Positions 6,095 through 35,488 of a DNA stretch of 64,000 nucleotides are shown here, one piece after another. Source of the stretch: a phage. Each line of letters opens with the position of its first letter. The first letter of the stretch is position 1. Under the pieces are notes generated by a model. It did not search any database, was not told the DNA's origin, and saw only the letters and a list, made by a program, of their open reading frames with translations. A program made the position numbers and the translations under genes. The DNA is taken from the sequence record PZ445523.1; one strand, written 5' to 3'.

Positions 6095-7295
6095 ATTTTG
6101 TAATAATGTCAAACTGTTCTTTAAAGCAGAAGCTTGAATCTTGATGCTGATACAAAAATTCATATGCTTTTTCACGTTCGCGGTCATAAAGAGCTCGGTC
6201 AGATGACAGTTCTTTAATACGTTCAAATGTTGATTCCATGTCATTTTCATCAAACCAAATGATACCGCTATCATGCGAGGTCAAAGGAGTATTATCAACA
6301 CGGAATTTTAAATTTTCGCCAGTAGATTTCCAAAATACCGGAATTGTTCCACATGCACCAAGCTCGAGATGAGTATATTCTAAAGAACGTTGTAGATATT
6401 TTTTGTCCAACTTACTCAACTGATAACCAAATCCGGATTTACTCATGCGTTCAAGCATTTCGCTATTTACATAACGGTCAAGAATTTGCGTTGGCAAATT
6501 AGGAGCAATTTTAATTTGGTCTACTTGATGAAGACGATAATACTCGTATGGAATTCCTTTTTCTTTAATAGGAATGAACGCTGGAGAACGTTCCAGACCT
6601 TCCATAATAGTACTTAGTCCTGCAGGTTTAAGATGTTTTTCATGAAAATCAAACATCTGATAAAAACCTTTCCATGTAGTCGTACGACCAATCCAACGGT
6701 TGATATTCATGTTAATTTCAGAAACATCTTTCCAGTATGTTGATCGAACCTTTGCAATATCCATCGGAGGCTGAAAGTTATATACGGTCGGTGCTTCTTC
6801 AATATCATCAAACAGAGAAACAGTTTCTGGATACCACTCTTTCATCAGAACTTTATTAAAATCACCATTATCAGAATGGCTAAAAATAATATCAGCTCGA
6901 CGAACAGTTTCTTCTAATCCCAAATTTCGACGCAAAGAAAGAGAAGAATGGTCATGCTGATAAACTACAACACGAACCGAAGGTTTAATGTTATCAATAA
7001 TTTTTTTATAGTTATTAATAGTGTCTTCTTCAACTGAAGTAGCAGGAACTGAATTGATAATTAGAATATCACAATCATTTACCAGCTTAAGTGTTTTATC
7101 GTATTCTTTTGCCAATAAAACCGGAATTGAAAATGATTTATAATCATGTGCACAGTTACGAGTAAATGATTTATCTTTAGCATAAACCAAAGTTACTTCA
7201 TGACCATTTTTAATAAACCAATCACGCTGCTCGAGTGAGAATTTTGTTACACCACAACCTTCAAGACCTCGAGCCATAAAAATACATACTTTCAT
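6093..7295 (-). CDS. agt: DNA alpha-glucosyltransferase
   Basis: 400 aa, same length and position (47 to 55 interval) as T4 a-gt. Confidence 0.75.
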   Translation of the reverse strand: MKVCIFMARGLEGCGVTKFSLEQRDWFIKNGHEVTLVYAKDKSFTRNCAHDYKSFSIPVLLAKEYDKTLKLVNDCDILIINSVPATSVEEDTINNYKKIIDNIKPSVRVVVYQHDHSSLSLRRNLGLEETVRRADIIFSHSDNGDFNKVLMKEWYPETVSLFDDIEEAPTVYNFQPPMDIAKVRSTYWKDVSEINMNINRWIGRTTTWKGFYQMFDFHEKHLKPAGLSTIMEGLERSPAFIPIKEKGIPYEYYRLHQVDQIKIAPNLPTQILDRYVNSEMLERMSKSGFGYQLSKLDKKYLQRSLEYTHLELGACGTIPVFWKSTGENLKFRVDNTPLTSHDSGIIWFDENDMESTFERIKELSSDRALYDREREKAYEFLYQHQDSSFCFKEQFDIITK

Positions 7296-32433: not shown

Positions 32434-32611
32434 CTAAACGAATAGGTTCATGAATGCCATATCCTTGAACAGAAATTTCTGTCGTAGGATAAATTCCATC
32501 AATATCCCCCATATTCCATGCTTCATTAAATTGTTGCTCACCTGAATTACTAAACCATTCAGCGAAAGCATTTAGTACATCTTCAGAACCTTCAATAATT
32601 ATCTTTGCCAT
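32390..32611 (-). CDS. Hypothetical protein
   Basis: 73-aa ORF. Confidence 0.35.
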   Translation of the reverse strand: MAKIIIEGSEDVLNAFAEWFSNSGEQQFNEAWNMGDIDGIYPTTEISVQGYGIHEPIRLVEYDLGTGEEVKYD

Positions 32612-32973
32612 TATAAGCTCTCGGTAAAGGTACGAGCGATAACGTCGCGCTGCTGTTCCGGAGTCAGAGAGTTAAAGCGAACTGCATAACCGGATACACG
32701 GATGGTCAGCTGCGGATATTTTTCCGGATGCTTAACTGCATCTTCCAGGGTTTCACGACGCAGAACGTTAACGTTCAGGTGTTGACCACCTTCAATTTTA
32801 ACTGTAGACTGTGGCTCAATTTCAATTTCACGGGCATGTAAACCGTAGAAAATTTCTGGGTCTACAAAAGAGTCCTCTTTAAAGGTTTTAGAGACAATAA
32901 TTCGCGCTTGAATACCATCTTCAAAATAAATAGTACCTTTATGCGTGCCTTCAAGAATTTGATATGCTTTCAT
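32611..32973 (-). CDS. GrcA/YfiD-like autonomous glycyl radical cofactor
   Basis: C-terminal ~60 aa [56 protein letters not shown] carries the RVSGY glycyl-radical motif and matches E. coli GrcA as I recall it; locally GC-richer DNA. Confidence 0.8.
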
Positions 32974-32979
32974 ATAACC

Positions 32980-33312
32980 TCAATTAGAAAATAAATTTAT
33001 CCAAGATTGTTCTTTAATTAAAAATGGCTCAGAATCATATGCCATTAAACTTTGCGTAATTAATCCTTTAAAAGGTCCATCAATAAATTCCATGGTAAAA
33101 TATGGAATTTTATTCATTAGCTGCGCGTTAGGAGCAGTGCACAAAACTCTGCATCCTTTGAATACACCCTTTTGTAATTTGTATTGCTTGGGATAAAATT
33201 CGCTCAAAATGTTGTTATTTGCCAAAATTTCAAAATGATTCACCAATTTATTTTTAATAGTTTTTGGTGAAAAATAAAGATATTCGAAAAGTTGCGCATC
33301 TGTCATCATTGC
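32980..33312 (-). CDS. Hypothetical protein
   Basis: Likely start MMTDAQLFEY. Confidence 0.4.
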   Translation of the reverse strand, partial: AMMTDAQLFEYLYFSPKTIKNKLVNHFEILANNNILSEFYPKQYKLQKGVFKGCRVLCTAPNAQLMNKIPYFTMEFIDGPFKGLITQSLMAYDSEPFLIKEQSWINLFSN

Positions 33313-33845
33313 ATTCCGATTACGAAAAACTGTGGACGAGTAATACCACCAATACAACATTTACTATTGCAACAGTACTGTACAGTGTCAATATGAGCAT
33401 CATAAATCTTATCCATATCAGGAGATTTGACAGGCTCATCAATTATATATAAAATTCGCGAAAGCGATAAACCTCTGAACTTGCTTCCTTTATTACCAAT
33501 AAAACTGCGCACAGAATCAGTAAATAAACGAAAACGTATATCATTATTAGAATAACGCGAAAATTCCTTTTTGATGTTATTTGCAGAAATTTTAGCGTAA
33601 GCTGAAGTATTAGAAAGAACAATAACTGTTCCGCCATCATACAGCCAATTAGCAGCAAAGTTAGTCACAGCAATTGATTTACCGGATTGACGTCCACCAT
33701 CTATACGAAGTGTGCAGTACTGTTTAAGTAATTCTTCAAATGGCGGGATATATTCGTTTTTACAAATTTCTTCTACTCTAGCATCAGAATGGTGTGTAAA
33801 AGCATTCATCAGGGATAGATAAGGACCAGTTAAAAATGTTCTCAT
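33306..33845 (-). CDS. Small P-loop NTPase
   Basis: Likely start MRTFLTGPY; Walker A GGRQSGKS, Walker B-like ILYIIDE. Confidence 0.5.
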   Translation of the reverse strand: MRTFLTGPYLSLMNAFTHHSDARVEEICKNEYIPPFEELLKQYCTLRIDGGRQSGKSIAVTNFAANWLYDGGTVIVLSNTSAYAKISANNIKKEFSRYSNNDIRFRLFTDSVRSFIGNKGSKFRGLSLSRILYIIDEPVKSPDMDKIYDAHIDTVQYCCNSKCCIGGITRPQFFVIGMQ

Positions 33846-33998
33846 TTTATTCTCTCTAAATTTGGGCCATTCCATGGCGCATGAATTGTCCATTTCTGTA
33901 TTTACCCATTACCGCACTCAGGCTCGACCTTATTACAGGTTGGCGGGAATCCCTCATAGAATCATGAGGTCCAGGTTGTTCCCATATTTCTTATTTGC

Positions 33999-34472
33999 TT
34001 ATTTGAATGATTTAACGTACTGAATAGAACCTTTACTATTCACAAAGGCAATTTTACCATTTTTGTTATACATGGTAGCAGTACGCTGATAGCCATAAGT
34101 TTGTTTACCAGATTGATAACCAACTAATGCAAAATTATCTTCGCCCATTTTATTCTGCTTAGCGCGGATACGTTCATGACCGTGCGCCATAAGAACCTTA
34201 GCGTCGCCAGTTGCAATGGATCTACGAGTTTTTTCATCTTCAACTGTATTAACAAAGTCGTCAAATGAATCAAATTTAGCATGAGATTTATTATACAGTT
34301 TTCCATCTACTGCATAATTATATCCCTGTACATCCATCTCAACTTCTGTACCATCATCCAATACAGCAGTGATTTTTTGACCTTTTTTAAATTTCAAAAG
34401 ATCAGTAAAAGATTCAGCAATAATTTGAGAATTAATAGCTGCTTCAGTAATAAATTCTTGATATGTTTTCAT
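33999..34472 (-). CDS. Internal-protein-like head protein with capsid targeting sequence
   Basis: N-terminus MKTYQEFITEAA matches the T4 internal-protein capsid targeting sequence consensus; lysine-rich. Confidence 0.65.
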   Translation of the reverse strand: MKTYQEFITEAAINSQIIAESFTDLLKFKKGQKITAVLDDGTEVEMDVQGYNYAVDGKLYNKSHAKFDSFDDFVNTVEDEKTRRSIATGDAKVLMAHGHERIRAKQNKMGEDNFALVGYQSGKQTYGYQRTATMYNKNGKIAFVNSKGSIQYVKSFK

Positions 34473-34481
34473 ATGTTTCCT

Positions 34482-34898
34482 TTAAATGTAAATATTTTTA
34501 CCGTAATACTTGTACCAATGTGGTTTCATTAAAATTTTTTCATCAAGTCGTTGTTGACTCAATTTAATAGCTGATTTGCATGGATTATAATCATTTTTCC
34601 ATTCTACTGGAATATCGCTGATGTCAGGAACTTCAGTATCTTTTATACTGAACCCGCGTTTTAAGCATTCCGTTATAATGTCTGATTGACGCTTTCGCAA
34701 AAATTCTAACTTATCGTAAAAGAAAGTAACATGACCAGAACCTAAAATAAACTCGGAAGATATTTTAAAATCTTTAACCCGCTTACCATTTGCCACATGT
34801 TTACGAACTATACCAAAAACACGCGGCAATTCACGGTATTCTGCGATTAAATGTTGATCAGCAAGTTCAGATACTAAAGTCAAATTAATACGAGTCAT
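34482..34898 (-). CDS. denV: Endonuclease V (pyrimidine dimer DNA glycosylase)
   Basis: 138 aa; [17 protein letters not shown]...WYKYYGK, near-identical to T4 endo V as I recall it. Confidence 0.9.

Positions 34899-34957: not shown

Positions 34958-35488
<531 letters not shown>

Follow-up and report, generated by a model that had tools for sequence, protein, structure and literature searches.

Vs.8, a predicted stand-alone P-loop ATPase related to the terminase motor domain, in the early gene block of a T4-like phage

Vs.8 of phage T4 is the best-described relative of the protein analyzed here, the product of an open reading frame (ORF) on the minus strand at positions 33306-33845 of the phage sequence record PZ445523.1 (a stretch of 64,000 nucleotides, hereafter the window). 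In T4, both the vs.8 RNA and the Vs.8 protein belong to the early class (PMC9697503 supplement), and the gene is non-essential: in an essentiality map of the transposon type, insertions were tolerated at 59 of 59 sites, with no fitness change in the recorded comparison (bioRxiv 10.1101/2025.11.20.689424 supplement). A study in which T4 proteins were screened with AlphaFold 3 against EcAvs2, a terminase sensor (PMC13601566; Nat Commun, August 2026), described Vs.8 as an ATPase-like protein that is homologous to the ATPase domain of the terminase and that causes toxicity if expressed together with EcAvs2. The AlphaFold 3 model places Vs.8 in the EcAvs2 pocket with a bridging ATP, and Vs.8 engages EcAvs2 in cells (PMC13601566). 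The same study describes two other non-terminase activators of Avs2, Ksap1 and Ksap2, which are small phage proteins with a sheet-and-helix fold resembling that of the terminase ATPase, are also predicted to sit in the Avs2 pocket, and are each limited to particular phage groups. By description, Vs.8 is set apart from these two: it combines terminase sequence homology with intact Walker motifs, whereas Ksap1 and Ksap2 show structural similarity only (PMC13601566). The authors suggested that the non-terminase activators may be anti-defense proteins that Avs2 learned to recognize (PMC13601566). The results presented below, obtained independently, agree with that study on Vs.8; the terminase-like ATPase nature of the protein and its recognition by EcAvs2 were thus already known, having been published in 2026.

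The window comes from a T4-like phage (Tequatrovirus), and the 2.5 kb around the ORF are 95-97% identical to the corresponding region in hundreds of Tequatrovirus genomes. The protein is 96% identical to T4 Vs.8 (NP_049732, UniProt P13318), aligning with the C-terminal 179 aa of the T4 entry, and is a full-length match to the phrog_1488 profile (E=2.3e-79, profile positions 2-177 of 177). The gene order around the ORF is that of the annotated T4, phiD1, and SP18 records, which name it vs.8, and its position is conserved as well, downstream of the denV and internal-protein genes and directly upstream of vs.7. The ORF is a real gene and the ortholog of T4 vs.8. The properties published for T4 Vs.8, namely, early expression, dispensability, a terminase-like ATPase domain, and toxicity with EcAvs2, should accordingly carry over to this ortholog. 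A first-pass annotation of the window had listed the function as unknown; that description stands for the role of the protein in infection but not for the gene itself, which is T4 vs.8, reported in 2026 to encode a terminase-like ATPase that activates EcAvs2. A tblastn search found vs.8 in 1011 phage records, and the 40 listed records, together with the tally of organism names, point to enterobacterial T4-type phages. In public databases, several records name the gene product “endoribonuclease” or “RegB domain-containing,” and one names it “terminase large subunit,” all of which are unsupported. We rejected the name “endoribonuclease,” found in some GenBank records, which looks like annotation spill-over from regB and which nothing backs.

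The mechanical ORF is longer at its upstream end, beginning at an ATG at 33893 (195 aa). N-terminal extensions, both in this 195-aa ORF and in the 219-aa T4 RefSeq protein, differ from phage to phage and show no conservation at the protein level, and the family-defining homologs start with M-(R/K)-x-(F/Y)-L-T. Because the conserved N-termini of the homologs begin at the ATG at 33845, this codon is the real start, in agreement with the first-pass annotation; the protein read from there begins MRTFLTGPYLSLMNAF, and the frame terminates at 33306. A purine run that is likely the Shine-Dalgarno sequence has a counterpart (AGAGA/GAGAA) at the equivalent place in related loci. A promoter scan of the region between the upstream gene and vs.8 found no convincing sigma-70 site. 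In the T4 record (NC_000866, 64253-64912; positions 6254-6913 of our locus L001), the annotation of Vs.8 includes 40 additional N-terminal codons, a nonconserved extension that translates the leader RNA motif described below.

Vs.8 is best explained, with high confidence, as a single-domain, stand-alone P-loop ATPase of the additional strand, catalytic glutamate (ASCE) class; outside its family, the N-terminal ATPase subdomain of the T4-type large terminase gp17 is closest to it in sequence. Comparison of the Vs.8 profile with an alignment of T4-type terminase ATPase domains using hhalign yielded 96.1% probability (E=3.5e-9, 123 columns), with three motifs in register: Walker A (161-SRQLGKT-167 in gp17), an RG dipeptide (R245-G246 in gp17 and R124-G125 in Vs.8), and Walker B (MIYIDE in gp17, ending at E256, and LYIIDE in Vs.8). 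The same comparison with the single gp17 sequence gave 80% probability, and a match to phrog_2 (terminase large subunit) was obtained with E=2.9e-6. Among 37 Vs.8 family members with identity down to 20-30%, the set to which all residue counts below refer, weak matches were detected to Terminase_6N in 22 (best E=6.8e-5) and to AAA_14 in 31, all of them below threshold. T4 gp17 was also among the best sequence matches in the PDB, with the RQxGK[ST] segment aligned, but these matches were non-significant. An AlphaFold2 model built with 37 diverse sequences (predicted local distance difference test [pLDDT] score of 86; predicted template modeling [pTM] score of 0.85) shows a long N-terminal helix followed by five strands alternating with helices, that is, a RecA-like core. 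A Foldseek search of the PDB with this model retrieved superfamily 1 (SF1) helicases, RecD, KaiC, and the terminase ATPase (TerL). Profile comparison or structure prediction had been proposed in the first-pass annotation as a check on its call, and the Walker motifs do align with those of the terminase in the profile comparison.

Several observations weigh against this assignment. The structure is a prediction, and a first run, with 12 close homologs, reached a pLDDT of only 49. The curated families all fall below their cut-offs, with Terminase_6N at 12.8 bits against 22 and AAA_14 at 16.4 bits against 27. The profile alignment with the terminase ends at residue 153, so that equating the C-terminal GMQ with the terminase coupling motif is a matter of position, and no conserved counterpart of the Tyr-Gln with which gp17 binds adenine appears in the aligned columns. 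ATP binding and hydrolysis by Vs.8 are, likewise, predicted activities. Other searches were uninformative. The Pfam scan returned only sub-threshold AAA_14, Terminase_6N, and AAA_30 matches plus a spurious conotoxin match on the Cys-rich tail; the NCBIfam scan of the ORF product returned noise only; none of the PADLOC defense models was significant (the best were HerA, E=0.011, and PtuA, E=0.03, over the P-loop only); two profiles searched against PDB sequences yielded nothing significant; and BLASTP of Vs.8 against gp17 produced an alignment with E=0.01 in the wrong register.

The resemblance between Vs.8 and subdomain I of the gp17 ATPase (Terminase_6N, PDB 2o0h) extends to the xRQxGK[ST] Walker A (G-R-Q-S-G-K-S in Vs.8 and S-R-Q-L-G-K-T in gp17), the RG motif, the hhhhDE Walker B, and the core fold. 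Unlike gp17, which has 610 aa, Vs.8 has about 180 aa and lacks the first ~130 residues, subdomain II, and the nuclease/translocation domain of gp17. In place of the TTT coupling motif of gp17, Vs.8 has a C-terminal GMQ, and its chain ends right after the fifth core strand. Vs.8 also falls below the Pfam cut-off and is made early, whereas gp17 is made late. Thus, the homology to TerL is confined to the ATPase core and does not reach the curated threshold, and the late expression beside the small terminase and portal genes that would be expected of TerL is not seen either: vs.8 sits in the early denV-regB block, and T4 gene 17 is located elsewhere. The homology to the gp17 ATPase subdomain, with the RG motif included, could be taken to mean that Vs.8 modulates the actual packaging motor, for example, by co-assembly with gp17, gp16, or the portal. 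We find this very improbable, given that Vs.8 is made early and packaging occurs late, that vs.8 is non-essential and its disruption brought no fitness change in the recorded comparison, that Vs.8 has none of the gp17 regions beyond the ATPase core, and that only some T4-type phages carry it, whereas gp17 is found universally in tailed phages.

The RecA-like domain 1 of SF1 and SF2 helicases (such as the DEAD family) and the N-terminal ATPase domain of phi29 gp16 share with Vs.8 the order of Walker A, Walker B, and the following core strand. The helicases differ in having a second RecA-like domain and a Q motif, both absent from Vs.8, and the sequence likeness amounts to weak AAA_30, AAA_19, and DEAD matches. 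As a single domain of 179 aa, Vs.8 does not show the two tandem RecA-like domains of an SF1/SF2 helicase, with the motif VI arginine finger in the second. Vs.8 is thus not itself a terminase or a helicase, despite being built on the same kind of ATPase core.

Within the family, the Walker motifs are more than a chance occurrence. The first-pass annotation had reported a ~180-aa ORF that carries GGRQSGKS as Walker A and ILYIIDE as a Walker B-like motif, and both were borne out when checked codon by codon; a GxxxxGK[ST] Walker A together with an hhhhD Walker B followed by a putative catalytic Glu is the pattern of the ASCE class. Besides the residues listed in Table 1, R113 is kept in 35 of the 37 members. 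Because Glu137 and the arginines are under selection in addition to the ATP-binding loop, hydrolysis, beyond mere ATP binding, appears to matter. In the proposed mechanism, Lys56 and Ser57 would hold ATP-Mg, and Glu137 would activate water; the RG motif, which is invariant in T4-type terminases, presumably has a role as well. The C-terminal end, judging from the model, may occupy the place of helicase motif III or the terminase coupling motif. The N-terminal helix, found at residues 6-29 in the AlphaFold2 model, lies outside the alignment to the terminase profile and is specific to the family. In two distant members, P0050 and P0051, His stands where Walker A has its Lys and the Asp-Glu pair of Walker B is gone, and these look like degenerate, non-catalytic relatives or borderline false members.

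The same motifs bear on the suggestion in the first-pass annotation that the protein could be a small kinase with nucleotides or host proteins as its substrates. A P-loop of the GxxxxGK[ST] type would suit a kinase, and weak sequence matches to uridine-cytidine kinase (E ~0.2) do occur, limited to the P-loop. However, the D-E pair of Walker B, with Glu right after the Asp, is typical of ASCE hydrolases, the significant profile match is to the terminase ATPase, and the fold neighbors are helicase domain 1 and terminase ATPase domains. The 179 aa leave no space for the lid and the acceptor- or substrate-binding segment that characterize the kinase-GTPase (KG) class fold, and no such segment is present. 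The suggestion therefore fails, and a kinase is the least likely of the alternatives considered here, to the point of being scarcely credible.

The Vs.8 family is small and almost always stand-alone. A word-indexed search retrieved close relatives only; when 1.84 billion cluster representatives were searched exhaustively with a profile, 41 hits were obtained. Nearly all full-length members have ~170-185 aa, in keeping with the earlier description of a stand-alone P-loop NTPase without an obvious partner domain; two longer entries owe their length to nonconserved N-terminal extensions, one of which translates the upstream leader. Every genomic context examined for the family is that of a T4-type phage, and this includes the distant member P0048, which is encoded in another T4-type genome between a topoisomerase gene and rIIA. 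Structure comparison reached further. In BFVD, the model matches many uncharacterized stand-alone proteins of 140-180 aa from large phages (E from 1e-6 to 1e-3; template modeling [TM] scores of 0.5-0.67; 12-26% identity), which are encoded by T4-type phages infecting Proteus, Vibrio, Aeromonas, and Acinetobacter, by jumbo phages infecting Pseudomonas, Ralstonia, and Erwinia, and by Bacillus phage SPO1. Examples include proteins of Proteus phiP4-3, Aeromonas phiAS5, Ralstonia phiRSL1, Pseudomonas 201phi2-1 and PhiPA3, Phabio, and Acinetobacter 133 and SPO1 gp34.44. The exhaustive sequence-profile search had missed most of these fold matches. Single-domain ATPases with such a fold may be a common, little-studied item in large phage genomes, as far as predicted structures can tell.

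The vs.8 gene is closely tied to its downstream neighbor. The ATG of vs.7 overlaps the vs.8 stop codon by 4 nt (ATGA, junction 33306-33309), an overlap shared with T4, and of 40 related IMG/VR loci, 36 have a gene of the Vs.7 family as the next one downstream, with an overlap of 1 or 4 nt in all but two. The adjacency persists where Vs.8 identity is down to 32-45%. Both the overlap and the co-occurrence of the two genes are new in this analysis; the overlap makes translational coupling of vs.8 and vs.7 likely. Vs.7, a small protein, contains a G-P-F-K-G-like motif in duplicate, and searches with it against Pfam and the PDB detected no relative. A partner is of interest here because Vs.8 is a lone RecA-like domain without a built-in arginine finger, so that hydrolysis probably needs self-association or a second protein; Vs.8 would then act as an oligomer or with a partner, for which Vs.7 is the candidate.

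These features raise the alternative that Vs.8 is the motor subunit of a small nucleic-acid machine, assembled as a homo-oligomer or with Vs.7 and acting early on DNA or RNA in the manner of a minimal helicase or translocase core. Its top fold matches, helicase domain 1 and packaging ATPases, are those of such motors, and helicase-like motif positions (I, Ia, Ib, II, and III) are discernible along its core strands; the co-inherited, translationally coupled partner gene and the structurally similar stand-alone proteins of 140-180 aa in many large phages would fit as well. Yet there is one RecA-like domain only and no recognizable nucleic-acid-binding domain, Vs.7 has no detectable relatives, and vs.8 is non-essential, with no known DNA or RNA phenotype. 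We therefore regard a nucleic-acid motor as distinctly unlikely.

The early block that holds vs.8 also contains genes with known counter-defense functions. One of these is vs.4, which we take to encode Acb2, a sponge directed against the cyclic oligonucleotide-based antiphage signaling system (CBASS). Another, vs.3, encodes the anti-Thoeris sponge TadIV-1 (PMC13243611). In this setting, Vs.8 most likely performs a step of neither nucleotide metabolism nor DNA packaging itself, and we tentatively propose for it an accessory role in host interaction or counter-defense, which we consider possible rather than probable. Some of the facts already at hand count against such a role. The other genes of the vs.3-vs.8 block, vs.8 included, gave no inhibition of type IV Thoeris when expressed singly (PMC13243611). 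The sole reported interaction of Vs.8, with EcAvs2, harms the phage (PMC13601566). The counter-defense assignment is drawn only from the gene neighborhood and the dispensability of vs.8.

A related but distinct alternative is that Vs.8 is a mimic of the ATP-loaded terminase ATPase domain, in which catalysis is irrelevant and which, being made early, occupies or desensitizes terminase sensors (Avs1-3 and Upx); ATP binding would be needed in this case, and hydrolysis would not. Vs.8 does resemble the terminase ATPase domain in both sequence and fold, it is predicted by AlphaFold 3 to sit in the EcAvs2 pocket with a bridging ATP and engages this receptor in cells (PMC13601566), it is early, dispensable, and encoded among counter-defense genes, and an anti-defense origin of the non-terminase activators has been proposed by the authors of that work. 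Vs.8 nevertheless activates EcAvs2 and does not block it, and there is no known receptor that Vs.8 inhibits. Furthermore, conservation is as strong for Glu137 and the RG motif, which a pure binder would not need, as for the ATP-binding residues. On balance, a non-catalytic mimic appears unlikely.

Combining the proposed accessory counter-defense role with the coupling to vs.7, one can envisage a two-protein counter-defense module of Vs.8 and Vs.7, in which a copy of the terminase domain, loaded with ATP and made minutes ahead of the real terminase, would blunt or mistime receptors of the Avs and Upx types, some of which, such as EcAvs2, would have turned the decoy into a trigger. This scenario is speculative, and we would not bet on it.

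The features of the locus are collected in Table 1.

Table 1. Coordinates of vs.8, its motifs, its leader, and the neighboring genes in the window
Feature	Coordinates	Strand	Remarks
vs.8 coding sequence	33306-33845	-	179 aa plus stop (stop codon 33306-33308); from the ORF list and our own translation
Purine run AGAGAGA, likely Shine-Dalgarno	33851-33857	-	5-11 nt 5' of the ATG; read from the sequence, putative
Family-specific N-terminal helix, residues 3-23 (TFLTGPYLSLMNAFTHHSDAR)	33777-33839	-	Y9 35/37, M13 32/37, F16 32/37
Walker A/P-loop GGRQSGKS, residues 50-57	33675-33698	-	G55 37/37, K56 35/37, R52 36/37, Q53 34/37
Arg124-Gly125 “RG” motif, shortly before the Walker B strand	33471-33476	-	R 33/37, G 34/37; aligned to R245-G246
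Walker B strand ILYIIDE, residues 131-137, with putative catalytic Glu137	33435-33455	-	D/E136 35/37 (Asp 30, Glu 5), E137 33/37; strand at residues 131-136 in the model
C-terminal strand and end motif FFVIGMQ, residues 173-179	33309-33329	-	G177 34/37, Q179 32/37; strand at residues 172-176 in the model
vs.7 coding sequence	32980-33309	-	109 aa; phrog_2049, function unknown
vs.6, GrcA-like autonomous glycyl-radical cofactor	32611-32973	-	Pfam Gly_radical, E=1.8e-18
Conserved structured RNA motif	33897-33953	-	whole conserved leader ~33846-33985
Internal virion protein gene (DUF7412)	33999-34472	-	phrog_3155
denV	34482-34898	-	
e (lysozyme)	34958-35452	-	

The arrangement on the upstream side differs from that in T4, where denV lies directly upstream of vs.8; in the window, the DUF7412 gene stands between them. 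The T4 genes ipII and ipIII lie on the other side of denV, and related phages carry different internal-protein genes at the denV-vs.8 spot, which therefore seems to be a variable insertion point beside a conserved leader. On the downstream side, the product of vs.6, which belongs to the same early block as vs.8, is annotated as GrcA in RefSeq phage records and is thus already known.

In the ~140 nt upstream of vs.8, nucleotide conservation exceeds that of the gene itself. The window, T4, phiD1, and SP18 share the stretch ACCTGTAATAAGGTCGAGCC...GCGGTAA without any change, although the Vs.8 protein is only 39% identical between genera, and the motif is present in almost all T4-type loci. We propose a structured RNA core in which helix P1 is the closing element and which further contains hairpin P2 (ACCU-GUAAUA-AGGU), hairpin P3 with two pairs, and a GGUAA junction. 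The two inner pairs of P1 are formed in 39 of 39 distinct sequences by CG, GC, UA, AU, or GU combinations; the P1 covariation score is 0.243, compared with 0.070 for shuffles, of which 0 of 500 reach 0.243, and when P1 is slid to other registers, the paired fraction falls to 27-43%. P2 and P3 are invariant in sequence except for one compensatory change in P2, and because a pattern relaxed at P2 gave chance matches only, P2 is considered sequence-invariant. The motif is single-copy in the window, matching the covariance model with 65.7 bits. Rfam 15 contained no family for the motif. Other tests were less telling: folded by itself, the sequence had no unusual stability (z = -0.46), RNAalifold applied to a MAFFT alignment of the complete leader recovered fragments only, and the flank-complementarity test was weak. 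The possibility that the leader is a small ORF was rejected, as neither frame nor start codon is conserved and the conservation is at the nucleotide level, without synonymous variation.

The motif is not confined to T4-type phages. Pattern scans of IMG/VR identified the same core in unrelated virulent coliphage contigs of 39, 46-47, 70-93, 121, and ~140 kb. In the rV5-like Vequintavirinae, it occupies an unannotated site after a consensus sigma-70 promoter; in one other locus, it is flanked by a tRNA gene and a terminator; and in 6 of 8 non-T4 loci, it is within ~600 nt of same-strand tRNA genes. In Slopekvirus-like phages, an internal-protein gene intervenes between the motif and vs.8, which argues that the motif heads the transcription unit and does not belong to vs.8 specifically. 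Two loci, L015 (2763-2819 and 2877-2931) and L026 (2770-2826 and 2883-2937), carry a second, more diverged copy of the motif in tandem upstream of vs.8, and the 246-aa family entry P0028 is an artefactual translation through both tandem copies. None of 185,579 bacterial and archaeal species genomes contains the motif, as the two pattern matches there failed the covariance model, and its sequence strings were not found in the literature text searched. Insertions throughout the T4 “vs.8” annotation, the leader included, are tolerated in the laboratory (bioRxiv 10.1101/2025.11.20.689424 supplement).

To what has been published on Vs.8, this analysis adds the exclusion of the kinase reading, the finding that the catalytic residues are under selection besides those that bind ATP, and the naming of Vs.7 as the likely partner. 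The leader RNA is a more promising lead than the ORF itself and, if it represents a new class of phage RNA, merits its own study. For Vs.8, these additions narrow the search for the reason why T4-type phages keep a spare packaging-motor domain in a counter-defense gene block.

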